A stretch of DNA of 64,000 nucleotides. Origin: Escherichia coli O157:H7. GTDB lineage: Bacteria > Pseudomonadota > Gammaproteobacteria > Enterobacterales > Enterobacteriaceae. A program made the translations under genes and the position numbers. The stretch is from NCBI RefSeq assembly GCF_013167455.1, contig NZ_CP038330.1; one strand, 5' to 3'. The notes beneath the pieces are model-generated. The model searched no databases, was not told the DNA's origin, and worked only from the letters and a program-made list of their open reading frames with translations. Shown here piece after piece: positions 490 through 22,309 of this stretch. The stretch's first letter is position 1; each line of letters opens with the position of its first letter.

Positions 490-1107
490 ATGAGACAACT
501 GATAGCAATTCTGGGAGTGGCAATTCTGGCCGGGTGTGCCTCTAACGCCCCCGAGCAAAAGCCTCAGCCCCAGACTGCCCCTGCCGAAAATGACAAACCT
601 GCCCGAGTTAGCCGGGAACTGTCGATGGCATGGGACAACATGGGGCGCGGTGGTGCTGCATTACGTCAACCTGGTTATATCCATGTGCTGGGCGACGGTA
701 ATGTCAGCGCAACGATGAACAAGGTCAAAGATGACTCCGCTGGTTCAGATAAAACTCCAGCAGGGATCAAACAGCACGGGGATGTCAACGAAGCCATCAA
801 TACCTTCAAGTCCATGAATAAAGGCAAAGGCTACTCGCTGTACGAGTTGTCACGCTGGGAACGCTATTGCGATGGTGGCAAAGGTATGGACGAGCACGAT
901 TGGCGCTTTGTGGAAGCCGAGGGAACCACAAACATCCCCAAGGACGTTGTAACCGGCTGCATACCACCTACCCACACCTATAAAGATTATCTGAATGCCT
1001 GGACGCACTTTTGCACCAGTCAGGCTGTAACTGACGCAGATCGCCGCATTGTGCGCGAGTCCGTGCGTCCCTATTCAGTGGTGAACCCATGCAAAGCTCT
1101 GAAATAA
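490..1107 (+). CDS. putative lipoprotein
   Basis: Internal ATG at 490 preceded by GAGG; N-terminus MRQLIAILGVAILAGCAS has signal peptide plus lipobox (LAGC); the ORF track extends the frame upstream to 328. Confidence 0.6.
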   Translation: MRQLIAILGVAILAGCASNAPEQKPQPQTAPAENDKPARVSRELSMAWDNMGRGGAALRQPGYIHVLGDGNVSATMNKVKDDSAGSDKTPAGIKQHGDVNEAINTFKSMNKGKGYSLYELSRWERYCDGGKGMDEHDWRFVEAEGTTNIPKDVVTGCIPPTHTYKDYLNAWTHFCTSQAVTDADRRIVRESVRPYSVVNPCKALK

Positions 1108-1322
1108 GAAACCAGACAGAGCTAGGCCGTAAGGCTGAGCTCTTCGACGCTTTATTAATCATGCTCCAGGAGGCCGGTTCGAGGGGTAATTCCAGCGAAG
1201 CGGCCTATGTCATTTCTGGAGTCCTCGAAAACCTCTCCAGAGACTACCCCGAAGTCAAAGGTCTGGCTCAAAGCTGGACTGAGCTGGCGAATCTGGAATC
1301 AAAGATGAGAGGAGCTGCTTAA
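1089..1322 (+). CDS. small hypothetical protein (77 aa)
   Basis: ORF whose stop overlaps the topB ATG (TAATGG); no recognisable motif; weak RBS. Confidence 0.3.
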   Translation: MQSSEIRNQTELGRKAELFDALLIMLQEAGSRGNSSEAAYVISGVLENLSRDYPEVKGLAQSWTELANLESKMRGAA

Positions 1323-3514
1323 TGGACCTTTATATCTGCGAGAAGCCTTCTCAGGCAAAAGATTTGGCTGGCGTAATGAAGGCCTCCCAACGAGGTGATG
1401 GATTTCTCCATGATGGAGGAAACCGCGTTATTACGTGGGCGTTCGGCCACCTGCTGGAATTGTATATGCCAGACGATTATGACGAACGCTACAAGTCATG
1501 GTCACTGGAGACCCTCCCTATTGCACCAGAGTCATGGCGGTACAACGTTCGCAAGAGTGCGTTCAAACAGTACAAAATTGTTGAGGGACTGGTCAAAAAG
1601 GCGAGCACCATCTACATCTCAACGGACTACGACCGAGAAGGTGAGGCTATCGCCCGTTCGCTTCTGGATCGATTCCGCTACTCTGGCCCTATTCGCCGAG
1701 TTTGTTTGACGGCTCTCGATGAGTCAAGCATCAAGAAAGCGCTGAACAACGTAAAGGATGGCAAGGATACGGTCTCACTCTACTACGCCGCATTGGCACG
1801 GCAACGCGCTGACTGGTTGGTAGGCATGAACGTGAGCCGCCTCTACACAGTGCTGGCCCGAGATGTCGGCTTCAACCACACTCTTCACGTTGGCAGGGTT
1901 ATCACCCCAACCGTCGCTCTTGTTTGTCAACGGGACCGAGAGATCGCCGGTTTCACCCCCTCACCATACTGGACTCTGGGTGTGAACGTGTCCGTACAGA
2001 ATGGACAGTTTGCCGCCCAATGGATACCACCAGAAGAGTGCAGTGACGAGCAAGGCCGGTGCGTCAATAAGGCCTATGCCGAGCAGGTAGCCTCCCAGGT
2101 CAATGGTGCCAATGCTGTTATCAGCAAAGCAGAAACCAAACCAGGTAAAGAGTCAGCCCCCCTCCCCTTCGATCTAACGTCGCTGCAACAATACGCGAGC
2201 AAACGATGGGGATACACAGCTCAGCAGGTACTGGATGCAGCTCAAGCTCTGTACGAGACGCACAAAGCGACCACCTACCCTCGTACTGACAGTCGTTATC
2301 TACCCGAGAGCCAAAAGGAAGACATTCCGGACATTCTCCAGGCGCTCATTTTGTCCGATCAGAACGTCTCTGGGCTGGTGGCTGGCGCAGATCCTCATCG
2401 CAAGGCCAGGGTATTCAATGACGCCAAAGTGACCGCGCACCACGCGATCATTCCAACACCGGCCAGAACAGACATCAGTGCCATGTCTGAGATCGAGTTC
2501 AATCTTTACGACGCCATCCGTCGTTTCTACATCGCGCAGTTCTACAGCGAGTTCGAGTTCACCAAAACCTCCATCGAGGTGCAGTGTGGGCGTCACCTCT
2601 TTGCGTCCGCTGGTAAGACACCTACCAAACAAGGCTGGAAGGTTTTGTTTGCTTCTGATAGTGAAAGCAGTCCCAAGGACGAGGGGGAAGACACCGACGC
2701 GCCGGTTGAACAAGAGAAGCTCCCCAGGGTTAGCCAGGGCGAACCTGCCTTGCTGAATGGGGCCGAGCTGGCAAACAAAATGACGCGGCCAGCACCGCAC
2801 TTCACCGAAGCCACATTGCTTGCCGCGATGGAGAACATTGCCCGGTTCGTGACTGAGGAGAAGTTCAAACAAATCCTCAAAGACACAGCCGGTTTAGGCA
2901 CTCCAGCAACACGCGCAAGCATCATCCAGGGCGCTGTTGATAAAGGCTACTTCAAGCGTCAGAAAAAGGTACTGCTTGCAACTGATAAGGCTCATGCGCT
3001 TATAGCAGTGCTTCCACCAGCCATCAAATCACCCGGCATGACTGCGGCTTGGGAGCAGGAGCTTGAGAAAGTTGCCTCCGGCTCCGGGAACATGTCTGTC
3101 TTCATGAAGCAGATTTCCACCTGGATCTGCCAAATGGTTGAGCAGCTCAAAGTGGCCGCACCGGTTCTGACCAAAGAAGGTGGCGCGATGGCTAAAGCCT
3201 TCGAGGGCGCGAAGCCTCCTTCACACGAATGCTTCAACTGCGGTGGAGAGATGCACCGGATCAAAGGGAAGAACGGTTTTTTCTGGGGCTGCCAGAACGA
3301 GGCTTGCAAGAAGACGTTCCCAGACAACCGAGGGAAACCCGAGAAACGTATCGCGGCGGAGGATTGTCCAGACTGCCCAGATTGCGGTAGCCCGATGCGT
3401 CTCAGGAAAGGAAAAGCCCCTGGCAAGAAACGAGCCTCTAAGTTCTGGGGCTGCACAGCGTATCCCGATTGCAAAGGCACTATGCCCTTCAAAAAGTCGG
3501 ACTTTATGGATTGA
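1322..3514 (+). CDS. topB: DNA topoisomerase III (type IA) with C-terminal zinc ribbons
   Basis: 730 aa; Toprim-like N-terminus (MDLYICEKPSQAKDLAG...), type IA topoisomerase core, C-terminal CxxC...CxxC repeats (CFNCGGEM..., CPDCPDCGSPM..., GCTAYPDCKG). Confidence 0.9.
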   Translation: MDLYICEKPSQAKDLAGVMKASQRGDGFLHDGGNRVITWAFGHLLELYMPDDYDERYKSWSLETLPIAPESWRYNVRKSAFKQYKIVEGLVKKASTIYISTDYDREGEAIARSLLDRFRYSGPIRRVCLTALDESSIKKALNNVKDGKDTVSLYYAALARQRADWLVGMNVSRLYTVLARDVGFNHTLHVGRVITPTVALVCQRDREIAGFTPSPYWTLGVNVSVQNGQFAAQWIPPEECSDEQGRCVNKAYAEQVASQVNGANAVISKAETKPGKESAPLPFDLTSLQQYASKRWGYTAQQVLDAAQALYETHKATTYPRTDSRYLPESQKEDIPDILQALILSDQNVSGLVAGADPHRKARVFNDAKVTAHHAIIPTPARTDISAMSEIEFNLYDAIRRFYIAQFYSEFEFTKTSIEVQCGRHLFASAGKTPTKQGWKVLFASDSESSPKDEGEDTDAPVEQEKLPRVSQGEPALLNGAELANKMTRPAPHFTEATLLAAMENIARFVTEEKFKQILKDTAGLGTPATRASIIQGAVDKGYFKRQKKVLLATDKAHALIAVLPPAIKSPGMTAAWEQELEKVASGSGNMSVFMKQISTWICQMVEQLKVAAPVLTKEGGAMAKAFEGAKPPSHECFNCGGEMHRIKGKNGFFWGCQNEACKKTFPDNRGKPEKRIAAEDCPDCPDCGSPMRLRKGKAPGKKRASKFWGCTAYPDCKGTMPFKKSDFMD

Positions 3515-4022: not shown

Positions 4023-4045
4023 TTAAGGGGCCGTCGGCCCCTTAT
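4023..4045 (+). terminator. rho-independent terminator-like hairpin
   Basis: GC-rich inverted repeat AAGGGGCCGTCGGCCCCTTA followed by T-rich run, just after the stop at 4017. Confidence 0.5.
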
Positions 4046-4107: not shown

Positions 4108-4386
4108 TCAATTCACATGGATGGCGAATACTTCAACCGGATAATCTCCAAAGTGCGGGTGCGTTATGACGTTCCTTGAGAAGCCACGCCAAGGACGAAT
4201 CTCTATCCTGGACATATCTCCAGCCTTTGGGTAGCCACACTTAACATGGACTTCATCATACTCGCGCCCCTCTAGTCTTTTTATCCAGTAGTCTGTGACG
4301 AGGCGATATTCATCTGGTTTTTCTCCAGATTTGATCTGATCGAAGTAAATCTTTTTTACGGGCAGATGAAGTATTCTCTTTTTCAT
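4108..4386 (-). CDS. ASCH/PUA-like domain protein
   Basis: Start MKKRILHL at 4386 with AGGTGG RBS; KKIYFDQIKSGEKPDEYR pattern resembles ASCH domains; last gene of the 10013->4108 minus-strand operon. Confidence 0.45.
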   Translation of the reverse strand: MKKRILHLPVKKIYFDQIKSGEKPDEYRLVTDYWIKRLEGREYDEVHVKCGYPKAGDMSRIEIRPWRGFSRNVITHPHFGDYPVEVFAIHVN

Positions 4387-4411
4387 AATCACCACCTGAT
4401 AGCTCATCAGA

Positions 4412-4618
4412 CTATCTAACTATTAGACAAAACATCCCTTTTTCAATTTCTGTCTCTCTCGCCTCATGGGCCAATACAATATCCGCGATAACACGAATAT
4501 TCCCTTCATAGTTGCGAATGGCCGCATCCCGCATCGTGTCTAAAGTGTCCTGACACTTCGCTCGCCTGAATTTAACGAGCCAACTTTGCCGATCTATCTT
4601 GTCCACACCAAATCCCAT
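4412..4618 (-). CDS. hypothetical protein (68 aa)
   Basis: ORF packed between flanking operon genes. Confidence 0.4.
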   Translation of the reverse strand: MGFGVDKIDRQSWLVKFRRAKCQDTLDTMRDAAIRNYEGNIRVIADIVLAHEARETEIEKGMFCLIVR

Positions 4619-5236
4619 TCAGCGAACCATGTATCCAGCTTCTTTTGCCGCAGCATCAAGCTCGGAGGAAAAGTTAACGTCGGACTTTTCTGCCGCGTTA
4701 TAGAGGGCTCCACACTTGGGCCATGAGCGCCCTACCAGTTTCATCGCCAACGCATCCGCCAGCATTTCTCGGATCTGTGTTTCAGCCTCACCAAAATCGG
4801 CTAGAGTTTCGTCTATGCCCGACTCTTCCATCAGCTCGATGAGCTGAGGTTGTTTGAGCCAGACGCCTGTTTGCATTTCCAACTGGTCTCTTGCATCTGC
4901 CACCAATTGGCGTTCAAGGGTGACGCCATTTACGGTCTTAACAAATTGCTTTGGCTGACGCTTTACCTTTTTTGGTCTGGACACATCAGAGATAACCGTC
5001 ACCGGCTTCCCACGCAGTTCACGCGGCAACGGTCCACTTAGCCCCAGAACTAAGCGACGAGCGTACTCATGCTCGTATGGTTTCAACCCTCGACCTTCAC
5101 GGTACATCTCAGTATCCACCAGCAGATCACCGCGCAGCCTCGCGTTTTTCCGCACTTGTTCGGACAAGACCGATTTGCCCTTCCCGCTGGCTCCCATTAC
5201 GAGCGAGTGAGATTCTACTTTGTTATCAAAAAACAT
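4619..5236 (-). CDS. P-loop NTPase / kinase-like protein
   Basis: Walker A motif GASGKGKS near N-terminus followed by DLLVD. Confidence 0.55.
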   Translation of the reverse strand: MFFDNKVESHSLVMGASGKGKSVLSEQVRKNARLRGDLLVDTEMYREGRGLKPYEHEYARRLVLGLSGPLPRELRGKPVTVISDVSRPKKVKRQPKQFVKTVNGVTLERQLVADARDQLEMQTGVWLKQPQLIELMEESGIDETLADFGEAETQIREMLADALAMKLVGRSWPKCGALYNAAEKSDVNFSSELDAAAKEAGYMVR

Positions 5237-5291
5237 AATTCCGCCCCCAAAGAGGTGTTGCTATAAAACATGGTTTGAACATCTGGCGCTG

Positions 5292-5948
5292 TTATTGCGC
5301 CCACCGATACTCTGGGCAACGCACTCTGTTGTGGCCGCTTTTCCCTTTGCTATTGGTGATGTCATCTTCATTCTTCGCAGCCCCCAGCTTACTCAGTATT
5401 TCAGCTTTTGTGGCGCGATGACCGCGTATTAAAAGAGCATTCAGCAGGTATCCAGTGAACACCTCTGTACTCGGCATACGGTCAAGCAACTCAACATACT
5501 GCTCATCCGTCAAATCATGGATCTCACAATATTTTTCCACCGCCTTTTCGTAGGCTTCTGCGTAGCCATGAGTGGAAATCCTGAAAACAATATCCCCATT
5601 GCCGTAGCCTGGCTTTGTGACGAGAAAACAAGGTGCGAAGTAGGTTCTCTTCACCCCCATCCGGCTCCGGTTCTCGATACTGATATAAGCCCTCAGCCCC
5701 TCAGCAATGATATTTGGCCCGGAGTTGCGTCGCCGCTTACAAGTCTTATTCTGACGCTTCACCTCTTCTGCCTCAGCTTCCCACTTTCGGTCCAAGCTGT
5801 AGGCCAGCCGGTGAGCTGTTGCGTAGGAATACTCTCTCAAGGAGAAGTATTCCTGCCGGTAATCATCCGCCACCCCAACTGTTCGTGCGACACGGAACCC
5901 GACGAAACCGGCGTCATGGGTTCCCTCGCCGTAGTAAATGACTGCCAT
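5292..5948 (-). CDS. hypothetical protein (218 aa)
   Basis: Start overlaps the stop of the upstream methyltransferase-like gene (translational coupling). Confidence 0.5.
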   Translation of the reverse strand: MAVIYYGEGTHDAGFVGFRVARTVGVADDYRQEYFSLREYSYATAHRLAYSLDRKWEAEAEEVKRQNKTCKRRRNSGPNIIAEGLRAYISIENRSRMGVKRTYFAPCFLVTKPGYGNGDIVFRISTHGYAEAYEKAVEKYCEIHDLTDEQYVELLDRMPSTEVFTGYLLNALLIRGHRATKAEILSKLGAAKNEDDITNSKGKSGHNRVRCPEYRWAQ

Positions 5949-7375
5949 TATTTACCTTCCTTACTTCTGATACCGTGCTGCACCACGGTATGGCGACCGC
6001 AATTCACATTCAGGTGATCCCGAACTGCGGCCATGACCGCTGAATGCAATCTGTAATCCACACTCTGCCCAAGTGTTTCTGTCGCTTGTTCTTTTGCCAT
6101 CCACGAAATATCAAAGCTATCAGGTATCGACATCAACTCCTGAACCAGATCGACCGATGGCTTGTAAATGCGGCCACCGTCTTGGATGTACACTGCATCC
6201 TTTACCCCACGATCCTGAGACTTGAGGATGGTCGGGCAACTGGTGCTTTCTCTCGTCAAGAACGCAGGCATCCTGCGAGAAGTTGACTCTCTGGCCTGAA
6301 TTGACTTCAACGCTGTGACGTCTGCACAATCCCCGAGGTGCTTCTCGATCACCGGCCACAATCGTCCACCAGCTCTCTGCTCAGGTTTCGGTGGAACGAA
6401 CCCAGGGAAGACCGACGCCACCATGTAATAGCGTTCTCGCCCCTGGTACGCGCCGAAATCCAGACCGTTCAAGACCATCTCAGTGAGGAAGTACCCCATC
6501 CGCCGCAGTGTCGTTCCCATCATCGCCCCGGCTCCGGATGCTTTGAAGTTCGGGACGTTTTCCACCAGCACGACGGCAGGGTTCACGACCTCGATCTGTT
6601 TTAGTGCCGGGTAAACCATGTCGAGCATGGTGGAGAGATCTTCAAGAGAACGCTCTTTGTCCCTTGGACTTTTGGCGTTTGAGTGGTCATCACACCCCAA
6701 CGAGTAATGGGCCAAACCAATTGGTGGGCACTCCGCCAGCAAGGCTCCAAGGCGATCCAGCTCCAGGTGATGAATGTCTTCATTCAGCAGGATACGCGGG
6801 GAGCTGTTCACCAGCGTATTGAGCGCATGTACTTCACTCAGGTTCCGCCCGGATGCTCTGTCTCTGGCTTCAACTGGACGATGTTCCAAAACAATCTCAG
6901 CCTTCCAGCCAAGCGATTCCATAACATGAATGTCTACCCCGCCAGTCAATGCCACAAAGGCACGGAAAGGGCTGGTTTTTCTGAACCGATCAGCAATGGC
7001 AAAGGCTCTGTTTGCGACGGGAGTGAAGACTACTCGACCTTTTCGCATTTCGACGTGGAAACGCTCTGTATAGCGAGGGAAGCACTTATCTATGAGCCCT
7101 TGTCCAGAAAACTCAATAACGGTTTCCAGCGGGTTGTTGGAGCGACTCTTTGGTTGATACCGGCGCTGATAAACCTGGTGTGTCTGTAGTTCATCGGTCG
7201 CTGGGATCACCGAAAAACCGCCCATCCCCTCCCCTGGCTCAACGGCGATGCCCATACCTGGCTTGAACCCCATAACATCCAAAAAGTTGGACGAAACCCT
7301 AACCTTGCGTTTATCGCCTACTCGATTGAACGCAAGTTGTTTGGTTACTACGGAGGGGGAGACGATCGGTAACAT
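5948..7375 (-). CDS. DNA cytosine-5 methyltransferase-like protein, divergent
   Basis: 475 aa; motif I-like EFSGQG, motif VI VVLVENVPNF, motif VIII-like QGRERYYMV, motif X-like GQSV; canonical PCQ catalytic motif not found (closest SLGCDDHS). Confidence 0.5.
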   Translation of the reverse strand: MLPIVSPSVVTKQLAFNRVGDKRKVRVSSNFLDVMGFKPGMGIAVEPGEGMGGFSVIPATDELQTHQVYQRRYQPKSRSNNPLETVIEFSGQGLIDKCFPRYTERFHVEMRKGRVVFTPVANRAFAIADRFRKTSPFRAFVALTGGVDIHVMESLGWKAEIVLEHRPVEARDRASGRNLSEVHALNTLVNSSPRILLNEDIHHLELDRLGALLAECPPIGLAHYSLGCDDHSNAKSPRDKERSLEDLSTMLDMVYPALKQIEVVNPAVVLVENVPNFKASGAGAMMGTTLRRMGYFLTEMVLNGLDFGAYQGRERYYMVASVFPGFVPPKPEQRAGGRLWPVIEKHLGDCADVTALKSIQARESTSRRMPAFLTRESTSCPTILKSQDRGVKDAVYIQDGGRIYKPSVDLVQELMSIPDSFDISWMAKEQATETLGQSVDYRLHSAVMAAVRDHLNVNCGRHTVVQHGIRSKEGK

Positions 7376-7378
7376 TGG

Positions 7379-7879
7379 TCAACCTCTTTTCTTCTTGTTT
7401 TGCTCGCGCTTCACCATTGCTCCAGCAGCTTTCAGAAGTCTCTGGTTCTCCGCCAGCTCCTCTTGGAGTTCCTGAGTATCCTCTTCTGTCTGAGCCTTTT
7501 TCAGCTCGGCCTCGCAATATTGGACCTCTTCCTGCAAGCTGACTTTCGCAAACTTGAGAGCGGCCAGTCGCGTCGTATAAACGCCAAAAGGCAATTCGCC
7601 ACCTTCCCGGAACTGCTTCAAGCACCAGCTCGGTATAGATGGCAACCAACCAAAGTCCCCATTCTTCCGTGACCTTTTCCCCCACGTAATCCCATCTAAC
7701 TTTTGGGCAAGATTGACATAGCGTTGATCGCTGGTTGAGTTGCGTCGTTTCTGAATAGAGCGAACTATCCACTCTGTAACCTCGACCTTTGCTTTATCAT
7801 CATCAGAGATGTAATAAAGGGCTGCGTACAACACAGCGCCTTTACGAATGACTGATGGTGGGTATGCCTGGGCTTTCAT
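7379..7879 (-). CDS. hypothetical protein (166 aa)
   Basis: ORF in operon; coiled-coil-like C-terminus. Confidence 0.45.
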   Translation of the reverse strand: MKAQAYPPSVIRKGAVLYAALYYISDDDKAKVEVTEWIVRSIQKRRNSTSDQRYVNLAQKLDGITWGKRSRKNGDFGWLPSIPSWCLKQFREGGELPFGVYTTRLAALKFAKVSLQEEVQYCEAELKKAQTEEDTQELQEELAENQRLLKAAGAMVKREQNKKKRG

Positions 7880-7887
7880 CTATCCCC

Positions 7888-8220
7888 CTATCGCTTTTTC
7901 TTTCCGACAAGACGGAGATGATCGGCGGCCAAGTCATACTGCTCGTTTTTGTCGCGGCGGCGGAATCTGTCAAAAAACTTCCCTCGTGGCAGGGTTTCTT
8001 CCATAGCGATCAGGCGGTTCAGCCACACTTCTTGAGGTAGCATCCCTGCTGGAGTCGGCCCGAGCTTACGTCCTTCCTTGACGTGCTCCATTGTTTGCGT
8101 GGCAGTAAAAATCGCACCACCAAACTTTCTCCACTTGAATTGCAGGGGCATATCTGGAGACTCATCCAGCATCAATTTCTTATTGGTTTGTTCTGTCACG
8201 ACAATTACTCCACCATCCAT
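7888..8220 (-). CDS. hypothetical protein (110 aa)
   Basis: ORF in operon, short overlap with upstream gene. Confidence 0.4.
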   Translation of the reverse strand: MDGGVIVVTEQTNKKLMLDESPDMPLQFKWRKFGGAIFTATQTMEHVKEGRKLGPTPAGMLPQEVWLNRLIAMEETLPRGKFFDRFRRRDKNEQYDLAADHLRLVGKKKR

Positions 8221-8711
8221 TCTTCACTAAGCAGGAACGCCCAGCGCTCTTCTGCTTTTTCTGGGTTGTCTTTGGCCTGTTTGATCATGATCTCGGCGGC
8301 GTTAAAGCCTACCTCTCCACTGAACCGGCCCCATGAATGGCTATGCCACTCGCGCATCACACTTCGGCCAAGCGATGCAAGTTCTGGACTTACACCCTCA
8401 TGGAGGGCATAGAGCTCCCAAGCATCCCACCCGTATCGTAATAGGTTGTGCCCTGGGGCGTTAAAGGCCTGAGCAGCCTTGAACCGCTCTCCAGGCTCCT
8501 TCCCTCTAACATCCACACCCTGGAGCACCAACCCCATTACCACTTCAATGACAGGCTCGCGTTGCTTCTTTGCCAGCTCGATGGCAGCCACCAGCATTGC
8601 TTTGGCGTCAACAAATTTCCCATGCCCTTGGCACATACCGCAGGTTTCTTTGGAAGGGGAAAAGTCATAAACACCGGAACCAGCACAAAGGCGGCATGTC
8701 AGGTCAATCAT
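8205..8711 (-). CDS. hypothetical protein with DnaJ-type CxxCxGxG zinc-finger repeats
   Basis: MIDLTCRLCAGSGVYDF...CGMCQGHGKF; start chosen at the Met giving an 8-bp overlap with the upstream gene (track start 8729). Confidence 0.4.
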   Translation of the reverse strand: MIDLTCRLCAGSGVYDFSPSKETCGMCQGHGKFVDAKAMLVAAIELAKKQREPVIEVVMGLVLQGVDVRGKEPGERFKAAQAFNAPGHNLLRYGWDAWELYALHEGVSPELASLGRSVMREWHSHSWGRFSGEVGFNAAEIMIKQAKDNPEKAEERWAFLLSEEWMVE

Positions 8712-9411
8712 GGGCTCTTCTCTCCTCATACTCTTCGATGCGCTCTTTCAGACGCTGAACCACTGGTGCGAGCTCAGGGATAGCTTCCGCTTCCTCAAGC
8801 GTGTATCGCTTGTCTTCCTGGTAATCGACTATTTGAGGAGGCCTTGGCTGTTTAGGGAACTCAGCAAAGTCATTCAGCGACATCGAGGTAGGAAGTCCTC
8901 CTTCAATCTCACCTTTTTCGTTGAGTGACTGAGTGACGATAAGCTGTGTTCCGCCCACCTCGGTATCAAAGCGGTCATCAAAGCGCTCACCGATAGTCCA
9001 GCCGCCACGGCCAAGAACACAGGTCGTACTCATACGTAGGCGATTGAATGCTTTAGCGTCATCCCAGTTCAAAGGATTTTCATCCATGAGGAAAAAAGGC
9101 GCTTCGTCCCGAACGAACACCTTGGACTTGGCGTTATCGAAGATCGGCCCAAACACCCCCTGCTGGAGGTATGGTTCGACTTTCTCTGCAAGATCCTGGT
9201 GCCCTTGAGAACGCAGCGCCTCATAGAGCTGGGTGATTGTTTGTTTGCCGGTGTCCGGAAGGCAGGACAATACTGTCTGCTTTTCCTCGTCACTCAGGCT
9301 TACCATTCTGGACAAAAAGCTGACTACCAGCTCGTTGTGCCCATCGACCGTTTCAATGTTGAGCTTGTTCTCGTCCATCTTCTTCCTCAGTAATCGGTTC
9401 GATAAATTCAA
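8704..9411 (-). CDS. hypothetical protein
   Basis: ORF in operon; true start may be the internal Met at 9378. Confidence 0.4.
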   Translation of the reverse strand: MNLSNRLLRKKMDENKLNIETVDGHNELVVSFLSRMVSLSDEEKQTVLSCLPDTGKQTITQLYEALRSQGHQDLAEKVEPYLQQGVFGPIFDNAKSKVFVRDEAPFFLMDENPLNWDDAKAFNRLRMSTTCVLGRGGWTIGERFDDRFDTEVGGTQLIVTQSLNEKGEIEGGLPTSMSLNDFAEFPKQPRPPQIVDYQEDKRYTLEEAEAIPELAPVVQRLKERIEEYEERRAHD

Positions 9412-9634
9412 TGGAGTCCATGCTTACATGACTGATAATGGCTTTCAGGCCGCAGCAGTCGCATGGTTCAAAGGTCAGTTCTGATCCCTTGGGAGACTGA
9501 TGCGTGACCGTTGCCACAGCCCCTAGAGGGATCAACCCCCAGCCGTTTTTTAGTACCCGAGTAGTTCTGACCAGCCGACCTTTGTACTCTCGTTTCAGTT
9601 TCGGATGCGGCACTACCGCATATCGCTTACTCAT
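9353..9634 (-). CDS. hypothetical protein (~94 aa)
   Basis: Start taken at internal Met (MSKRYAVV) to avoid a 95-bp overlap with the upstream gene. Confidence 0.35.
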   Translation of the reverse strand: MSKRYAVVPHPKLKREYKGRLVRTTRVLKNGWGLIPLGAVATVTHQSPKGSELTFEPCDCCGLKAIISHVSMDSIEFIEPITEEEDGREQAQH

Positions 9635-10013
9635 TTCGGTCCCCTTGTACCAAAGGCTCGACAACCAGCTCTTGAGCTTCGTCCCAGTCGGACACCTTTG
9701 CATCACCAAACGCAAAGGCAATTCGCATAGCCACTGTCGGCCTGCCTATTTTCATCAAGTAAGCCGCAGCACCGGCACACATCGACTCTTGTCCCGAAGG
9801 TGCATAGTTACCCTCTTCATCCCATTCACCACCTGACTTTGAGTGCACGGTCTTGTGGCAATGAAACGTCGTCATGTCGTTTTCAACGATGTCGTTGATG
9901 ATGCCTTCTAATCGCCCAGGGGCCAGCTCGATAGCGCCCTCCTTCCGGAATGGACAGTTGGCGCAAGGTTTCTTCAAACGGAGATGATTTGCTTGCTTTG
10001 GCATACATATCAC
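9627..10013 (-). CDS. hypothetical Cys/His-rich protein; first gene of operon
   Basis: CANCPF...HCHK motifs; followed without gaps by ten same-strand genes down to 4108. Confidence 0.45.
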   Translation of the reverse strand: MICMPKQANHLRLKKPCANCPFRKEGAIELAPGRLEGIINDIVENDMTTFHCHKTVHSKSGGEWDEEGNYAPSGQESMCAGAAAYLMKIGRPTVAMRIAFAFGDAKVSDWDEAQELVVEPLVQGDRNE

Positions 10014-10102
10014 TTTTACAGCATCATTTTATGATTCTATGATATAGCCATATTCCGTGTAGTCAATATCTCACTAACAATTACTTTCTATCGGACGCTT
10101 AC

Positions 10103-10119
10103 GCGCCCATTTTGGGCAG
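10103..10119. promoter_or_regulatory. candidate activator box GCGCCCATTTTGGGCAG
   Basis: CC-W5-GGGC inverted-repeat motif ~90-105 bp upstream of the operon start at 10013; similar boxes at 400-416, 36339-36353, 50344-50366. Confidence 0.35.
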
Positions 10120-10178
10120 ATAGACAAGTTATTTGGGCGTTTGGGCGTTTGGAGTGTGCGAGGTGGACAGCGGGGAGA

Positions 10179-10194
10179 CTTTCACATGTGAAAG
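10179..10194. promoter_or_regulatory. 16-bp palindrome CTTTCACATGTGAAAG (copy 1 of 5)
   Basis: Perfect palindrome in the divergent intergenic region; identical copies at 13594, 44203 (core), 50310, 58351. Confidence 0.6.
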
Positions 10195-10330
10195 TTTTGT
10201 TTCTTGGTATCGTTTTATTGTCTCTTGATATTATTTTATGATGCTGTAATAATCATAAATAAGGGCCGCATCGCTCTTCGACCTTCGTTGCAGCCCTTAC
10301 AACACAATCAAGCAATTAAGGAGCTTTGTT

Positions 10331-10474
10331 ATGCTGCAAGGCAATACTAACACGAATAAGCGCATCCCGCTCGCGGCGTTCATGAAATGGCCGCTGGCGA
10401 AACGTCAGGACTTCATCGACCGGGAAATGTCCGGTTGCCCCGACTTTATCAAGACGTCTTTGCTTCGGCATTAA
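10331..10474 (+). CDS. small hypothetical ORF (47 aa)
   Basis: ATG preceded by AAGGAG; followed by a hairpin terminator; below the ORF-track size cutoff. Confidence 0.3.
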   Translation: MLQGNTNTNKRIPLAAFMKWPLAKRQDFIDREMSGCPDFIKTSLLRH

Positions 10475-10496: not shown

Positions 10497-10527
10497 GAAC
10501 CTCGCTTCGGCGGGGTTCTTCGTTTCT
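10497..10527 (+). terminator. terminator-like hairpin
   Basis: AGAACCTCGC-TTCG-GCGGGGTTCT stem-loop followed by a T-rich run. Confidence 0.4.
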
Positions 10528-10565
10528 ACCTCTTGAATGTTTCGTCAGAACAAACTGGAGCGCTT

Positions 10566-11201
10566 ATGTCACCAGAAACACAGCAACTTACATCCAAGGC
10601 TTTATCTCTCATCGAGCAGTCCCGATACAGAATGGGCACATCTCGGTTTGTTGAGGCCTTTATTGACCAGTGGGCATACTTGCAGACTGGCCTATACCCA
10701 GCCAAGGAGGAGATCCCGGAAGAACTTCAGCCGGTCGCCTTCGAGCTCTCTCACGTCCTGTCTGCCGCCATTAAGCGCGACCCCACCAGCGATGTTTTGG
10801 GTTACGTCCTAAGCATGTCTGGCTTCCACAAGAAGGGCACCAATTACTTCCCCACTCCTCCAGAGATTGGCCGCTTGATGTCACTCATTGTTGGCTCACA
10901 GTCTTCGGCAGACTTTTATGAGCCCTGCTGTGGTTCTGGCATCAACGCCATTCACTGGATGGAAAACCTGATCGAGAACCACGGTCCCGAAGCATTGAGA
11001 GAAGCCTCAATCTACCTGGAAGACATCGATCCGTTGATGGTGAAGTGCTGCATGATCCAGCTATTCCATTATTTCGAGTCCCGCAATACCACTCCCAAAA
11101 CGCTGAGTATCGTCGGCATAGACACCCTTAGCAGACGAACCAAGAACATCGCCTACTACGCCGAAAAACCTCCAGCAACCGCCGCTACCGTGGCAGCATA
11201 A
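10566..11201 (+). CDS. SAM-binding N6-adenine methyltransferase-like protein, short (211 aa), lacking the NPPY catalytic motif
   Basis: YFPTPPEIGRLM and DFYEPCCGSGINAI match the TP..V and DPxCGSG motifs of gamma-class N6-MTases; no NPP(Y/F/W) before the stop; ATG at 10566 with GGAG RBS. Confidence 0.45.
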   Translation: MSPETQQLTSKALSLIEQSRYRMGTSRFVEAFIDQWAYLQTGLYPAKEEIPEELQPVAFELSHVLSAAIKRDPTSDVLGYVLSMSGFHKKGTNYFPTPPEIGRLMSLIVGSQSSADFYEPCCGSGINAIHWMENLIENHGPEALREASIYLEDIDPLMVKCCMIQLFHYFESRNTTPKTLSIVGIDTLSRRTKNIAYYAEKPPATAATVAA

Positions 11202-13593: not shown

Positions 13594-13638
13594 CTTTCAC
13601 ATGTGAAAGATTGTAGCGATCATAAAATGATACTGCAA
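13594..13638 (-). promoter_or_regulatory. parA promoter with overlapping palindromic operator (copy 2)
   Basis: Minus-strand -35 TTGCAG (13633-13638), 17-bp spacer, -10 TACAAT (13610-13615), then palindrome CTTTCACATGTGAAAG (13594-13609) at the predicted start site. Confidence 0.6.
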
Positions 13639-13718: not shown

Positions 13719-14030
13719 TCAGCGCAATTGATTTGCTGCTCCAAGCCCATTCGCCAATAACTGCATCGCATCGTTGAACAGCGCGGAGCCCCGTTCCGGT
13801 GTGAGCAATTCCGGCATATCTTCTCGCGGCCAAGTACCGGCTACTTGAATGAGCAAACTGGCAGCCCAGTGGATCTGCTTTTCTTCACTTTCATCGGCCA
13901 GAGTGCATACGACGGGGAAACCGTACTTACGCCCCCAGCGACTCACCTCTTTGAACGATACCAGCTCAGGCTTTTGCAAATCCCGGCTGTAGGCCTCAGC
14001 TATCATGTGGTTCAGTTCTTTAGCGTCCAT
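13719..14030 (-). CDS. hypothetical protein; last backbone gene before the resistance island
   Basis: 103-aa ORF with hairpin downstream (~13687-13703). Confidence 0.45.
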   Translation of the reverse strand: MDAKELNHMIAEAYSRDLQKPELVSFKEVSRWGRKYGFPVVCTLADESEEKQIHWAASLLIQVAGTWPREDMPELLTPERGSALFNDAMQLLANGLGAANQLR

Positions 14031-14336
14031 TTATCCCACTCTATTGTAAACAAGACATTTTTATCTTTTATATTCAATGGCTTATTTTCCTGCTAATTGG
14101 TAATACCATGAAAAATACCATGCTCAGAAAAGGCTTAACAATATTTTGAAAAATTGCCTACTGAGCGCTGCCGCACAGCTCCATAGGCCGCTTTCCTGGC
14201 TTTGCTTCCAGATGTATGCTATTCTGCTCCTGCAGCTAATGGATCACCGCAAACAGGTTACTCGCCTGGGGATTCCCTTTCGACCCGAGCATCCGTATGA
14301 GACTCATGCTCGATTATTATTATTATAGAAGCCCCC

Positions 14337-15152
14337 ATGAATAAATCGCTCATCATTTTCGGCATCGTCAACATAACCTCGGACAGTTTCTCCGATGGAG
14401 GCCGGTATCTGGCGCCAGACGCAGCCATTGCGCAGGCGCGTAAGCTGATGGCCGAGGGGGCAGATGTGATCGACCTCGGTCCGGCATCCAGCAATCCCGA
14501 CGCCGCGCCTGTTTCGTCCGACACAGAAATCGCGCGTATCGCGCCGGTGCTGGACGCGCTCAAGGCAGATGGCATTCCCGTCTCGCTCGACAGTTATCAA
14601 CCCGCGACGCAAGCCTATGCCTTGTCGCGTGGTGTGGCCTATCTCAATGATATTCGCGGTTTTCCAGACGCTGCGTTCTATCCGCAATTGGCGAAATCAT
14701 CTGCCAAACTCGTCGTTATGCATTCGGTGCAAGACGGGCAGGCAGATCGGCGCGAGGCACCCGCTGGCGACATCATGGATCACATTGCGGCGTTCTTTGA
14801 CGCGCGCATCGCGGCGCTGACGGGTGCCGGTATCAAACGCAACCGCCTTGTCCTTGATCCCGGCATGGGGTTTTTTCTGGGGGCTGCTCCCGAAACCTCG
14901 CTCTCGGTGCTGGCGCGGTTCGATGAATTGCGGCTGCGCTTCGATTTGCCGGTGCTTCTGTCTGTTTCGCGCAAATCCTTTCTGCGCGCGCTCACAGGCC
15001 GTGGTCCGGGGGATGTCGGGGCCGCGACACTCGCTGCAGAGCTTGCCGCCGCCGCAGGTGGAGCTGACTTCATCCGCACACACGAGCCGCGCCCCTTGCG
15101 CGACGGGCTGGCGGTATTGGCGGCGCTGAAAGAAACCGCAAGAATTCGTTAA
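14337..15152 (+). CDS. sul2: sulfonamide-resistant dihydropteroate synthase Sul2
   Basis: 271 aa, MNKSLIIFGIVNITSDSFSDGGRY..., recognised as Sul2. Confidence 0.97.
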   Translation: MNKSLIIFGIVNITSDSFSDGGRYLAPDAAIAQARKLMAEGADVIDLGPASSNPDAAPVSSDTEIARIAPVLDALKADGIPVSLDSYQPATQAYALSRGVAYLNDIRGFPDAAFYPQLAKSSAKLVVMHSVQDGQADRREAPAGDIMDHIAAFFDARIAALTGAGIKRNRLVLDPGMGFFLGAAPETSLSVLARFDELRLRFDLPVLLSVSRKSFLRALTGRGPGDVGAATLAAELAAAAGGADFIRTHEPRPLRDGLAVLAALKETARIR

Positions 15153-15212
15153 CTGCACATTCGGGATATTTCTCTATATTCGCGCTTCATCAGAAAACTG
15201 AAGGAACCTCCA

Positions 15213-16016
15213 TTGAATCGAACTAATATTTTTTTTGGTGAATCGCATTCTGACTGGTTGCCTGTCAGAGGCGGAGAATCTGGTGATTTTGTTTTTCGAC
15301 GTGGTGACGGGCATGCCTTCGCGAAAATCGCACCTGCTTCCCGCCGCGGTGAGCTCGCTGGAGAGCGTGACCGCCTCATTTGGCTCAAAGGTCGAGGTGT
15401 GGCTTGCCCCGAGGTCATCAACTGGCAGGAGGAACAGGAGGGTGCATGCTTGGTGATAACGGCAATTCCGGGAGTACCGGCGGCTGATCTGTCTGGAGCG
15501 GATTTGCTCAAAGCGTGGCCGTCAATGGGGCAGCAACTTGGCGCTGTTCACAGCCTATCGGTTGATCAATGTCCGTTTGAGCGCAGGCTGTCGCGAATGT
15601 TCGGACGCGCCGTTGATGTGGTGTCCCGCAATGCCGTCAATCCCGACTTCTTACCGGACGAGGACAAGAGTACGCCGCAGCTCGATCTTTTGGCTCGTGT
15701 CGAACGAGAGCTACCGGTGCGGCTCGACCAAGAGCGCACCGATATGGTTGTTTGCCATGGTGATCCCTGCATGCCGAACTTCATGGTGGACCCTAAAACT
15801 CTTCAATGCACGGGTCTGATCGACCTTGGGCGGCTCGGAACAGCAGATCGCTATGCCGATTTGGCACTCATGATTGCTAACGCCGAAGAGAACTGGGCAG
15901 CGCCAGATGAAGCAGAGCGCGCCTTCGCTGTCCTATTCAATGTATTGGGGATCGAAGCCCCCGACCGCGAACGCCTTGCCTTCTATCTGCGATTGGACCC
16001 TCTGACTTGGGGTTGA
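15213..16016 (+). CDS. strA: aminoglycoside 3''-phosphotransferase APH(3'')-Ib
   Basis: 267 aa, MNRTNIFFGESHSDWLPVRGGESGDFVFRRG..., recognised as StrA. Confidence 0.97.
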   Translation: MNRTNIFFGESHSDWLPVRGGESGDFVFRRGDGHAFAKIAPASRRGELAGERDRLIWLKGRGVACPEVINWQEEQEGACLVITAIPGVPAADLSGADLLKAWPSMGQQLGAVHSLSVDQCPFERRLSRMFGRAVDVVSRNAVNPDFLPDEDKSTPQLDLLARVERELPVRLDQERTDMVVCHGDPCMPNFMVDPKTLQCTGLIDLGRLGTADRYADLALMIANAEENWAAPDEAERAFAVLFNVLGIEAPDRERLAFYLRLDPLTWG

Positions 16017-16852
16017 TGTTCATGCCGCCTGTTTTTCCTGCTCATTGGCACGTTTCGCAACCTGTTCTCATTGCGGACACCTTTTCCAGCCTCGTTTGGA
16101 AAGTTTCATTGCCAGACGGGACTCCTGCAATCGTCAAGGGATTGAAACCTATAGAAGACATTGCTGATGAACTGCGCGGGGCCGACTATCTGGTATGGCG
16201 CAATGGGAGGGGAGCAGTCCGGTTGCTCGGTCGTGAGAACAATCTGATGTTGCTCGAATATGCCGGGGAGCGAATGCTCTCTCACATCGTTGCCGAGCAC
16301 GGCGACTACCAGGCGACCGAAATTGCAGCGGAACTAATGGCGAAGCTGTATGCCGCATCTGAGGAACCCCTGCCTTCTGCCCTTCTCCCGATCCGGGATC
16401 GCTTTGCAGCTTTGTTTCAGCGGGCGCGCGATGATCAAAACGCAGGTTGTCAAACTGACTACGTCCACGCGGCGATTATAGCCGATCAAATGATGAGCAA
16501 TGCCTCGGAACTGCGTGGGCTACATGGCGATCTGCATCATGAAAACATCATGTTCTCCAGTCGCGGCTGGCTGGTGATAGATCCCGTCGGTCTGGTCGGT
16601 GAAGTGGGCTTTGGCGCCGCCAATATGTTCTACGATCCGGCTGACAGAGACGACCTTTGTCTCGATCCTAGACGCATTGCACAGATGGCGGACGCATTCT
16701 CTCGTGCGCTGGACGTCGATCCGCGTCGCCTGCTCGACCAGGCGTACGCTTATGGGTGCCTTTCCGCAGCTTGGAACGCGGATGGAGAAGAGGAGCAACG
16801 CGATCTAGCTATCGCGGCCGCGATCAAGCAGGTGCGACAGACGTCATACTAG
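16016..16852 (+). CDS. strB: aminoglycoside 6-phosphotransferase APH(6)-Id
   Basis: 278 aa starting MFMPPVFPAHWHVSQ at the internal ATG overlapping the strA stop. Confidence 0.97.
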   Translation: MFMPPVFPAHWHVSQPVLIADTFSSLVWKVSLPDGTPAIVKGLKPIEDIADELRGADYLVWRNGRGAVRLLGRENNLMLLEYAGERMLSHIVAEHGDYQATEIAAELMAKLYAASEEPLPSALLPIRDRFAALFQRARDDQNAGCQTDYVHAAIIADQMMSNASELRGLHGDLHHENIMFSSRGWLVIDPVGLVGEVGFGAANMFYDPADRDDLCLDPRRIAQMADAFSRALDVDPRRLLDQAYAYGCLSAAWNADGEEEQRDLAIAAAIKQVRQTSY

Positions 16853-17431
16853 ATATCAAGCGACTTCTCCTATCCCCTGGGAACACATCAATCTCACCGG
16901 AGAATATCGCTGGCCAAAGCCTTAGCGTAGGATTCCGCCCCTTCCCGCAAACGACCCCTGGAAGCCCCGTAGCGACGCGGAGAGGGGCGAGACAAGCCAA
17001 GGGCGCAGGCTCGATGCGCAGCACGACATAGCCGGTTCTCGCAAGGACGAGAATTTCCCTGCGGTGCCCCTCAAGTGTCAATGAAAGTTTCCAACGCGAG
17101 CCATTCGCGAGAGCCTTGAGTCCACGCTAGATCTATCTCATCTGCGCAAGGCAGAACGTGAAGACGGCCGCCCTGGACCTCGCCCGCGAGCGCCAGGCGC
17201 ACGAGGCCGGCGCGCGGACCCGCGCCACGGCCCACGAGCGGACGCCGCAGCAGGAGCGCCAGAAGGCCGCCAGAGAGGCCGAGCGCGGCCGTGAGGCTTG
17301 GACGCTAGGGCAGGGCATGAAAAAGCCCGTAGCGGGCTGCTACGGGCGTCTGACGCGGTGGAAAGGGGGAGGGGATGTTGTCTACATGGCTCTGCTGTAG
17401 TGAGTGGGTTGCGCTCCGGCAGCGGTCCTGA

Positions 17432-18082
17432 TCAATCGTCACCCTTTCTCGGTCCTTCAACGTTCCTGACAACGAGCCTCCTTTTCGCCAATCCATCGAC
17501 AATCACCGCGAGTCCCTGCTCGAACGCTGCGTCCGGACCGGCTTCGTCGAAGGCGTCTATCGCGGCCCGCAACAGCGGCGAGAGCGGAGCCTGTTCAACG
17601 GTGCCGCCGCGCTCGCCGGCATCGCTGTCGCCGGCCTGCTCCTCAAGCACGGCCCCAACAGTGAAGTAGCTGATTGTCATCAGCGCATTGACGGCGTCCC
17701 CGGCCGAAAAACCCGCCTCGCAGAGGAAGCGAAGCTGCGCGTCGGCCGTTTCCATCTGCGGTGCGCCCGGTCGCGTGCCGGCATGGATGCGCGCGCCATC
17801 GCGGTAGGCGAGCAGCGCCTGCCTGAAGCTGCGGGCATTCCCGATCAGAAATGAGCGCCAGTCGTCGTCGGCTCTCGGCACCGAATGCGTATGATTCTCC
17901 GCCAGCATGGCTTCGGCCAGTGCGTCGAGCAGCGCCCGCTTGTTCCTGAAGTGCCAGTAAAGCGCCGGCTGCTGAACCCCCAACCGTTCCGCCAGTTTGC
18001 GTGTCGTCAGACCGTCTACGCCGACCTCGTTCAACAGGTCCAGGGCGGCACGGATCACTGTATTCGGCTGCAACTTTGTCAT
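17432..18082 (-). CDS. tetR: tetracycline repressor TetR(A)
   Basis: 216 aa from MTKLQPNTVIRAALDLLNEVGVDGLTTRKLAERLGV; ORF track over-extends the N-terminus. Confidence 0.95.
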   Translation of the reverse strand: MTKLQPNTVIRAALDLLNEVGVDGLTTRKLAERLGVQQPALYWHFRNKRALLDALAEAMLAENHTHSVPRADDDWRSFLIGNARSFRQALLAYRDGARIHAGTRPGAPQMETADAQLRFLCEAGFSAGDAVNALMTISYFTVGAVLEEQAGDSDAGERGGTVEQAPLSPLLRAAIDAFDEAGPDAAFEQGLAVIVDGLAKRRLVVRNVEGPRKGDD

Positions 18083-18084
18083 GC

Positions 18085-18140
18085 TTGACACTTTATCACT
18101 GATAAACATAATATGTCCACCAACTTATCAGTGATAAAGA
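18085..18140. promoter_or_regulatory. tet operator/promoter region
   Basis: Two palindromic operators (TTTATCACTGATAAACA and CTTATCAGTGATAAAGA) between divergent tetR and tet(A). Confidence 0.7.
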
Positions 18141-18187
18141 ATCCGCGCGTTCAATCGGACCAGCGGAGGCTGGTCCGGAGGCCAGAC

Positions 18188-19387: not shown

Positions 19388-19660
19388 CCCGGCAATTCCT
19401 TTCCCTGCTCTGCCATAAGCGCAGCGAATGCCGGGTAATACTCGTCAACGATCTGATAGAGAAGGGTTTGCTCGGGTCGGTGGCTCTGGTAACGACCAGT
19501 ATCCCGATCCCGGCTGGCCGTCCTGGCCGCCACATGAGGCATGTTCCGCGTCCTTGCAATACTGTGTTTACATACAGTCTATCGCTTAGCGGAAAGTTCT
19601 TTTACCCTCAGCCGAAATGCCTGCCGTTGCTAGACATTGCCAGCCAGTGCCCGTCACTCC
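19356..19660 (-). mobile_element. truncated ISCR2 copy (terIS-side ~305 bp including the first 62 codons of rcr2)
   Basis: Identical to 23641-23945 of the complete ISCR2; encodes MPHVAARTASRDRD...EFEEFLQ then diverges. Confidence 0.8.
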
Positions 19661-19959
19661 GCGGTCTTCACTGCGTGATCGAGTTGATCGACACCCGCCG
19701 TGACACGCTCCATGAAGTGCCTGCCTGCGTCTGTTAGCCGAACGCCCCGCGCATGGCGCTCAAATAGCAGGACACCAAGGTTATCCTCCAGCGCTTTCAC
19801 ACGCGCGCTGACGCTCGACTGGCTGATACCAAGTGCCTTGGCCGCATGCCGAAAATTCAGATGCTCGGCGACGGCGATGAACTGAACAAGGGAAATGAGC
19901 GGTATCCTGCCAGACAGGATACCGACATTCACGAGGTTTCGATGGTTAGTGCGCCGCAT
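19654..19959 (-). pseudogene. truncated LysR-family regulator (N-terminal HTH fragment)
   Basis: 101-aa fragment with LysR HTH (FIAVAEHLNFRHAAKALGISQSSVSARVKALE); cut by the ISCR2 fragment; typical floR-associated lysR remnant. Confidence 0.7.
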
Positions 19960-19986
19960 CGGAGCGGGCCTGCTACCAGTCGTCGG

Positions 19987-21201: not shown

Positions 21202-21417
21202 GACGAATCAACCCTCGATTAAGGAATACCGGGCGACGTCTGCTCGTCAGCAATCAGATGAGACTAGCCTTACAGAGCGCCGCAACAACAATACTGGTTG
21301 TTGCGGCTTACTTGTCTGCTGACTTGGAATTTCCCATCTGATTACTCCACGCTTACGAATATGAATTGCTACATTTTATCCGATTATCTTTTGCTTCGCA
21401 ATGCGGCATGGGCGCAC

Positions 21418-22302: not shown

Positions 22303-22309
22303 TTTGATT

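Follow-up and report, generated by a model that had tools for sequence, protein, structure and literature searches.

IncC (A/C2) conjugative plasmids have been described as carrying three dcm genes, of which dcm2 (1428 bp, WP_000936896.1) is vcrx042 of plasmid pVCR94. The closest described relatives of the locus presented here are the vcrx036-vcrx044/vcrx050-055 genes of pVCR94, the genes of pR55 from R55_55 onwards, and dcm2 of pVC211. The same plasmid backbone carries the hde operon (vcrx089-093), which, like vcrx036-055, is a conserved multi-gene accessory operon linked to AcaCD, the master activator of transfer. At the protein level, Dcm2 can be compared with the M.HhaI-type cytosine-C5 methyltransferases (Pfam PF00145) and, in its N-terminal part, with MraZ (PDB 1n0e), a protein with tandem SpoVT/AbrB units. 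Here, we analyze a window of 64,000 nucleotides from Escherichia coli O157:H7 (assembly GCF_013167455.1, contig NZ_CP038330.1; all positions are counted from the first nucleotide of the window), in which eleven consecutive minus-strand genes at positions 4108-10004 include dcm2. The best overall explanation of the locus, which we hold with moderate confidence, is an IncC operon with an active orphan Dcm2 that would pre-modify plasmid DNA in donor cells.

A previous interpretation of this stretch, made from the nucleotides alone and referred to below as the sequence-only reading, had proposed eleven packed minus-strand genes around a divergent C5-methyltransferase-like gene on a conjugative plasmid. 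Both the list of open reading frames (ORFs) and the RefSeq annotation of an identical plasmid confirm this layout. The beginning of the block at position 4108 stands, whereas its other end, given as 10013, does not: position 10013 is a GTG located farther upstream, and the annotated start of the first gene is the ATG at 10004.

Identity and distribution of the operon

Sequence comparison identifies the region as the conserved vcrx036-vcrx055 backbone operon of an IncC (A/C2) conjugative multidrug-resistance plasmid, an assignment based on the flanking genes and on the matching plasmids and their typing. Matches to a 6.3-kb region are found in 1068 plasmid records, of which 598 are ≥99% identical and 407 are 95–99% identical; they come mostly from conjugative plasmids of Klebsiella, Salmonella, Escherichia, Citrobacter, Providencia, Vibrio, and Aeromonas and are typed as IncC, MOBH, and MPF_F. 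The operon, whose conservation the sequence-only reading had named as a point to check, is kept among the related plasmids: at least 80% of it is covered in 934 of the 1068. In the annotation of NZ_CP027679, one flank consists of the traI (mobH) relaxase gene, two small genes, topB, and another small gene, and the other flank of an N6-methylase-like gene, a helix-turn-helix gene, and parB/parA. The gene order of that plasmid is parA-parB, the helix-turn-helix gene, vcrx034, vcrx035, the operon, and then the convergent topB-vcrx059 genes and traI.

The agreement with pVCR94 extends to the individual genes. The lengths of vcrx036-042 (378, 282, 675, 507, 312, 501, and 1428 bp) are exactly those of the first seven genes of the operon, and vcrx053 (618 bp) and vcrx055 (300 bp) correspond to the ninth and eleventh genes. 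The window-type dcm2 is 1428 bp long and annotated as WP_000936897.1, and WP_000936896.1 occupies the same place in a sister lineage. Genes, gene order, and gene lengths are shared with pVCR94, pR55, and pVC211, as are the AcaCD box, the transcription start, and the parS site located upstream. In pVCR94, however, an insertion truncates the gene of the 218-residue protein (vcrx043) and splits off the last three genes, whereas the operon in the window is uninterrupted. A second IncC lineage differs from the window in having an extra 72-residue ORF after the gene of the 218-residue protein, in the 55-nucleotide gap (5237-5291) that separates it from the gene of the 205-residue protein. In approximately 400 IncC plasmids of the 95–99% identity band, about 455 additional base pairs containing the 72-residue ORF are present between these two genes (locus L010, 1439-1955). 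The gap is both a polymorphism between lineages and a hotspot for insertions, and the larger insertion of pVCR94 is located nearby. The locus is already published, named, and very widespread, and finding it here is a rediscovery; the remaining interest lies in the signature of the Dcm2 clade.

Structure and catalytic core of Dcm2

Dcm2 is composed of an N-terminal domain (residues 1-137), which is additional to the M.HhaI-type architecture, and an M.HhaI-like core (residues ~138-462). The sequence-only reading had called for a structure prediction around the GCDDHS motif. The AlphaFold (AF2) model of Dcm2, which has a predicted local distance difference test score (pLDDT) of 89.8, shows the predicted fold of a complete two-lobe M.HhaI-like enzyme with a target-recognition domain. 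In Foldseek comparisons, the C-terminal two thirds of Dcm2 match M.HhaI, Dnmt2, EhMeth, and M.HaeIII with E-values of ~1e-16 to 1e-13 and target template modeling (TM) scores of 0.63–0.76; the matches to M.HhaI and Dnmt2 have E-values of about 1e-16 and TM scores of 0.69–0.76. At the sequence level, the Pfam family DNA_methylase (PF00145) covers only residues 228-320 (E = 6.7e-8, 32.8 bits, positions 71-160 of the 324-position model) and spans motif IV to motif VIII.

The motifs that had been noted in the 475-residue protein are all present: GCDDHS at residues 227-232, ENV at 272-274, and QxRxR, in the form QGRER, at 311-315. From 5.8 billion proteins searched, 100 homologues of Dcm2 were retrieved, mostly of ~460-510 residues and with identities as low as 33%. 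When 32 of these homologues (33–100% identity) are aligned, residues G146, D148, C228, E272, V274, R313, R315, and G436-Q437-S438 are invariant, as is E199, and E164, N198, and D200 are nearly so. Dcm2 shares with M.HhaI-type enzymes the catalytic cysteine, the ENV motif, the RxR of motif VIII, the acidic residue of motif II (E164), and the (N)EDI of motif III (N198-E199-D200-I). The differences are in three other motifs. Motif IV reads G/Q-C-D-D-H/F-S in the Dcm2 clade and P-C-Q-x-F-S in the M.HhaI type; the motif I loop is T-G-G-V-D instead of x-G-x-G-G; and motif X contains G-Q-S (GQSV in Dcm2) instead of G-N-S/A.

According to the sequence-only reading, the catalytic Pro-Cys-Gln (PCQ) had been lost. 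Even when carefully aligned, the IncC protein shows no canonical PCQ, and the proline and glutamine are indeed replaced, but the catalytic cysteine is retained. The family profile pairs "lSlqCddfs" with "gFPCQaFS" of M.HhaI, which makes C228 the equivalent of the catalytic Cys81. At the column of C228, one family member has the canonical PCQ and another has CCQ, and the alignment of these members confirms the register of motif IV. The active site of Dcm2 is unusual, yet, judging from residue conservation, it is probably still functional. Because the variant motif is a signature of the whole clade, and because the catalytic residues and those binding S-adenosylmethionine (SAM) are invariant down to 33% identity, Dcm2 is unlikely to be an inactive relic, as the earlier interpretation had allowed. 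Inactivity follows only weakly from the altered motif, since all residues known to be needed for the chemistry are kept under strong purifying selection.

N-terminal domain and the Dcm2 clade

Residues 1-137 of Dcm2, when searched on their own, have no match in Pfam even at E ≤ 10. Their predicted fold matches that of a solved MraZ/SpoVT-AbrB swapped-hairpin protein, and the model indicates that the domain is MraZ-like and putatively DNA-binding. MraZ stands alone, whereas the version in Dcm2 is fused to an enzyme; unlike MraZ, the Dcm2 domain has no detectable membership in the sequence family, and its DNA-binding role is putative.

A search of 1.84 billion representative proteins with a profile of the N-terminal domain yields only 120 clusters, in which the profile nearly always matches at the N-terminus. 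The longer hits form two length classes, of ~460-500 and ~560-685 residues. All six members of the longer class that were checked carry a C5-methyltransferase core. In the ~560-685-residue architecture (P0265, P0272-P0327), an extra ~130-200 residues precede the non-PCQ C5-methyltransferase core. Among clade members of at least 400 residues, motif IV has the form x-C-(D/S/T)-x-(F/H/Y)-S; QCDDFS is the commonest variant and proline is rare. By these sequence features, the Dcm2 clade appears as a rare, small, and coherent group of ~120 clusters with its own signature. Of its members, only the IncC Dcm2 resides on a well-studied element, and no description of the signature was found in the literature searched.

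Genomic context of Dcm2 and its distant relatives

No nuclease or restriction domain was detected in the ten other proteins of the operon by Pfam, NCBIfam, or PADLOC. Six loci of distant Dcm2 homologues, on plasmid-like contigs or contigs resembling integrative and conjugative elements from Ralstonia, Microbulbifer, Aeromonas, and metagenomes, share no conserved neighbor and no constant nuclease partner. Dcm2 is an orphan methyltransferase, because its neighbors lack a nuclease domain and the neighbors of its distant homologues vary. A restriction-modification pair was ruled out on the same two grounds. The distant loci are rich in small uncharacterized genes and in other orphan methyltransferases, and Dcm2-type enzymes behave as orphan methyltransferases of mobile elements.

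A conserved functional gene module around the Dcm2 homologues was likewise not found: the sole recurring neighbors are DUF6283-like genes, present in three of the six loci. These genes, which encode zinc proteins related to vcrx036, are located within a few kilobases of the Dcm2 homologue (L002, 5445-5894; L003, 7156-7578; L006, 13195-13629). The recurrence could reflect a functional link or merely common plasmid cargo. The gene directly downstream of the Dcm2 homologue encodes a DUF559/MTES_1575 (Vsr-like) protein at L004 (11521-12363) and a RecA_dep_nuc protein at L006 (11416-12033). The IncC operon has no equivalent of these nuclease-type genes. A role of the operon in a defense system was also considered and rejected, as PADLOC returned just generic methyltransferase matches and weak matches to JetC and mad8.

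Promoter region of the operon

The dispersed palindrome and the candidate activator box that the sequence-only reading had placed upstream of the operon are both real, and both are published: the palindrome is the IncC parS site and the box is the AcaCD box of the vcrx036 promoter (Table 1). The parS site next to R55_55/vcrx036 has been reported as a ParB-binding site (PMC10954446). Its core is present in six copies in the window, compared with 0.01 expected by chance. In the operon promoter, parS is located ~50 bp upstream of the AcaCD box. The further parS cores, one of which is mismatched, are at 13595-13608, upstream of parA, and at 43758-43771, 44203-44216, 50311-50324, and 58352-58365. 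An AcaCD-like box at 50348-50362 is 24 bp from the parS copy at 50311, which is the same pairing as in the vcrx036 promoter.

The AcaCD box of vcrx036 corresponds to a motif at positions 20382-20410 of pVCR94 (MAST p-value of 5.3e-10), for which a peak in chromatin immunoprecipitation with exonuclease treatment (ChIP-exo) is listed (Carraro et al., PMC4207636 Table S3). A related AcaCD box is located at 401-415 in the traI/vcrx059 promoter. The transcription start determined by rapid amplification of 5′ cDNA ends (5′-RACE) is at 20445-20447 of pVCR94. Positions from pVCR94 were transferred by arithmetic, the window position being 30505 minus the pVCR94 coordinate, which assumes that there is no insertion or deletion over 120 bp. 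A match to a sigma-70-like consensus is located at 10066-10039.

Expression of vcrx036 has been reported to rise from 0 without AcaCD to 320 with AcaCD (PMC4207636 Table S3). In the RNA sequencing (RNA-seq) of pVCR94, vcrx037 (1 without AcaCD, 520 when induced), vcrx038 (70 and 988), and vcrx040 (0 and 206) were called AcaCD-dependent. The promoter-proximal genes are turned on along with the conjugation genes by AcaCD.

Activity and role of Dcm2

The preferred explanation takes Dcm2 to be an active enzyme, because the clade shows no variation in the nucleophilic cysteine, the glutamate of ENV, both arginines of motif VIII, and the SAM-binding residues. Dcm2 would most likely methylate plasmid (and host) DNA in the donor while the transfer regulon is on, and the transferred strand would then arrive pre-modified and be protected from cognate restriction in the recipient. 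Such a function may be redundant with those of the other dcm genes of the plasmid, dcm1 and dcm3. Two published findings favor a role in transfer: pVC211 was no longer transferred once dcm1-3 had all been deleted, and a plasmid dcm gene can protect 2700-fold against EcoRII. The MraZ-like domain might either target Dcm2 or autoregulate it, and the ten other small proteins may be accessory cargo.

Several observations weigh against this explanation. In motif IV, proline is replaced by glycine (by glutamine in most of the clade) and glutamine by aspartate, and the cofactor-contacting asparagine of motif X is replaced by glutamine. The NCBIfam dcm model TIGR00675 scores Dcm2 at 38.3 bits, under its cut-off of 100.65. 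In the bisulfite sequencing of Wang et al., V. cholerae carrying an IncC plasmid had 6965 methylcytosines and V. cholerae lacking it had 7321, and no new motif emerged. In the same study, deletion of dcm2 was the sole single deletion without observed plasmid loss. The transposon insertion sequencing (TnSeq) screen of Roy et al. did not identify any dcm gene as necessary for evading restriction. On the IncC plasmid pKAZ3, one dcm gene confers ~2700-fold protection against EcoRII (Dimitriu et al.). Crediting this protection to dcm2 was rejected, as the gene knocked out is a different dcm gene, located at 80.4-82.4 kb of pKAZ3, and the knock-out primer has no match in the window. For the distal genes, regulation is less clear-cut than for the proximal ones, because dcm2 mRNA (31 versus 113) was not called AcaCD-dependent, and because the vcrx036 promoter-lacZ fusion looked constitutive in a later reporter study. 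No biochemical assay of Dcm2 alone was found in the literature.

The replacements in motifs IV and X, the lack of a new 5-methylcytosine (m5C) motif in plasmid-bearing cells, the fact that no phenotype of the single deletion was reported, and the additional putative DNA-binding domain would all suit a catalytically dead Dcm2, kept as a sequence-specific DNA-binding or regulatory protein through its N-terminal and target-recognition domains. In such a protein, however, the residues that serve only catalysis or SAM binding would be expected to be lost, whereas C228, E272, R313, R315, the glycine-rich loop, E164, and NEDI are kept down to 33% identity, and one clade member retains PCQ at the same position. 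We consider a dead Dcm2 quite unlikely.

It has also to be considered that Dcm2 is active in a non-canonical way, modifying single-stranded DNA during transfer, being directed by the N-terminal domain to just a few plasmid sites, or transferring a group other than methyl. The concerted change of motif IV (QCD-type) and motif X (asparagine to glutamine) throughout the clade is consistent with such an activity. The same asparagine position alters cofactor choice in the natural carboxymethyltransferase CmoX, which is among the fold matches of Dcm2. The dedicated N-terminal domain is found only on such methyltransferases, and a non-canonical activity, if true, would explain why methylome surveys of IncC-bearing cells, which are whole-plasmid bisulfite and single-molecule real-time (SMRT) sequencing comparisons, yielded no new m5C motif. 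However, CmoX uses arginine, and an engineered enzyme lysine, to bind the carboxylate, whereas glutamine is neutral; the operon contains no CmoA-like or other cofactor-making gene; and the cells sampled for bisulfite sequencing were at steady state, when expression may just be low. A non-canonical activity is in our view very unlikely. It is equally doubtful that Dcm2 and its clade of ~120 clusters, characterized by the MraZ-like domain, QCD(D/E)(F/H)S, and GQS, form a functionally distinct class of cytosine-C5 enzymes.

The sequence-only reading had pointed to anti-restriction or establishment functions, a role that is plausible and unproven. In its explicit form, the operon would be an early-expressed cassette that acts in the recipient immediately after entry, like ArdA or hde. 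Such cassettes typically contain orphan methyltransferases together with small uncharacterized proteins, pVC211 lost its transfer in the triple dcm1-3 deletion (Wang et al.), and the vcrx036 promoter was active without AcaCD in the reporter. A possible role in crossing host restriction barriers is common to vcrx036-055 and to hde and other plasmid anti-restriction cassettes; no proteins are shared between them. The hde operon was found by the host-defense-evasion TnSeq screen of Roy et al., which recovered only vcrx089-093, whereas vcrx036-055 was not recovered there and has no experimental anti-restriction phenotype. Moreover, the AcaCD-regulated promoter belongs to the donor-phase transfer program, and the proteins of the operon have no similarity to a known anti-restriction protein or defense component in NCBIfam, PHROG, or PADLOC. 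A cassette acting in the recipient is unlikely, and pre-modification of plasmid DNA in the donor remains our preferred explanation.

Other proteins encoded by the operon

None of the ten proteins other than Dcm2 has a Pfam match at E ≤ 1e-3. The Cys/His-rich protein noted in the sequence-only reading is real: vcrx036 matches phrog_5443 (E = 2.9e-23), and its match to Pfam DUF6283 (PF19800) has an E-value of just 0.069. Its identity to two proteins annotated by Pfam as DUF6283 is 31–32%, with KKPC..CP, F.CH, and CAG invariant. The DnaJ-type zinc finger is likewise present in vcrx039, where the pair of CXXCXGXG repeats, CRLCAGSG...CGMCQGHG, is readable directly in the sequence. The Pfam match to DnaJ_CXXCXGXG (PF00684) is weak (E = 2.5e-3), and TIGR02349 matches the zinc-finger segment with E = 0.003. 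The protein vcrx041 matches phrog_18599 (E = 1.5e-30) and has a weak, coiled-coil-type match to JetC. The 218-residue protein has no domain match in Pfam, NCBIfam, PHROG, or PADLOC, and no homologue of it was found beside the distant dcm2 relatives.

The proposed P-loop NTPase is the 205-residue protein, vcrx053. Its Walker-A-like motif holds up: in ten homologues, neither the G-K-S of GxSGKGKS nor D41 of LLVD varies. The P-loop fold itself has no support from Pfam, NCBIfam, or the PDB, the single-sequence PDB search being uninformative. Precomputed annotation assigns PF26975 to homologues of the protein, and PADLOC gives a weak match to mad8 (E = 1.2e-4). Two names in older GenBank records, "phage head-tail adapter protein" for this gene and "thymidylate kinase" for vcrx038, were rejected, as neither is supported by Pfam, NCBIfam, or PHROG; vcrx038 also lacks a Walker A motif.

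The 99-residue protein had been called ASCH/PUA-like. The names of its homologues agree with this, since NCBI lists them as "ASCH domain-containing" or "RNA-binding protein" and JGI also as ASCH, and the protein matches phrog_625 (E = 2.3e-31). Domain searches do not agree: Pfam, including ASCH (PF04266), gives no match at E ≤ 0.1, the top PDB match of the protein profile, 1xne, is non-significant (E = 0.45), and the single-sequence PDB search is uninformative.

Organization of the operon and neighboring genes

Adjacent genes of the operon overlap by 1-26 nucleotides or are separated by 0-8 nucleotides, the 55-nucleotide gap being the single exception. The stop codon of dcm2 is overlapped by one nucleotide by the start codon of the gene of the 218-residue protein. 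A strong hairpin closes the operon and is located between the vcrx036-055 block and the convergent vcrx059-056 (topB) operon.

Table 1. Positions of genes and regulatory elements of the vcrx036-055 operon in the window. Proteins marked "no recognizable domain" were searched against databases including Pfam, NCBIfam, and PHROG.
Feature	Position	Strand	Description
parS	10176-10197		IncC ParB-binding site, 22-bp inverted repeat; 14-bp core TTTCACATGTGAAA at 10180-10193, flanked by AAAC/GTCT
AcaCD box	10095-10123	-	vcrx036 promoter; core TGCCCAAAATGGGCG at 10104-10118
Transcription start	10058-10060	-	Published 5′-RACE, position transferred from pVCR94
vcrx036	9627-10004	-	125 aa, Cys/His-rich, resembles DUF6283 (CxxC...CH...C)
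vcrx037	9353-9634	-	93 aa, no recognizable domain
vcrx038	8704-9378	-	224 aa, no recognizable domain
vcrx039	8205-8711	-	168 aa, N-terminal DnaJ-type CXXCXGXG zinc finger
vcrx040	7888-8199	-	103 aa, no recognizable domain
vcrx041	7379-7879	-	166 aa, charged C-terminus, probably helical
dcm2 (vcrx042)	5948-7375	-	475 aa, predicted orphan C5-cytosine methyltransferase
218-aa protein gene	5292-5948	-	Full-length version of pVCR94 vcrx043
vcrx053	4619-5236	-	205 aa, Walker-A-like GxSGKGKS and invariant LLVD
68-aa protein gene	4412-4618	-	No recognizable domain
vcrx055	4108-4407	-	99 aa, ASCH-like; 92 aa from the RefSeq start (4108-4386)
Hairpin	4024-4044	both	Terminator-like, bidirectional; 9-bp stem with six G-C pairs, T-rich tails on each side

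The topB gene (1322-3514, plus strand) encodes a protein of 730 residues with zinc-ribbon repeats at its C-terminus. Together with two small genes (490-1323, plus strand), topB forms the published AcaCD-activated vcrx059-056 operon, which converges on the dcm2 operon at the hairpin shared by both.

On the other side, vcrx034 (10566-11201, plus strand), which lies ~560 bp upstream of the operon and is encoded on the other strand, specifies an N6-methylase-like protein of 211 residues. It weakly resembles HsdM (E = 0.0018) and is silent in the pVCR94 RNA-seq. The "dam1" primer of Dimitriu et al. matches positions 10519-10553 of the window, a match that identifies "dam1" of pKAZ3 as vcrx034. Deletion of "dam1" had no effect on restriction. 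The small ORF vcrx035 (10331-10474, plus strand, 47 residues) is silent despite an AcaCD motif on the reverse strand. Farther away, the segment at ~14000-32000 has a G+C content of 55–63%, compared with ~50% in the backbone, and is probably a resistance island inserted beyond parA.

Implications

Across Enterobacterales and Vibrio, IncC plasmids are among the main vehicles of resistance genes, those for carbapenemases included. Knowledge of the activity and target of Dcm2 would indicate how far their broad host range rests on self-methylation and how far on the hde genes. With its "universal" Pro-Cys-Gln replaced throughout and a dedicated N-terminal domain added, the clade points to a gap, small but real, in how C5-methyltransferases have been described.

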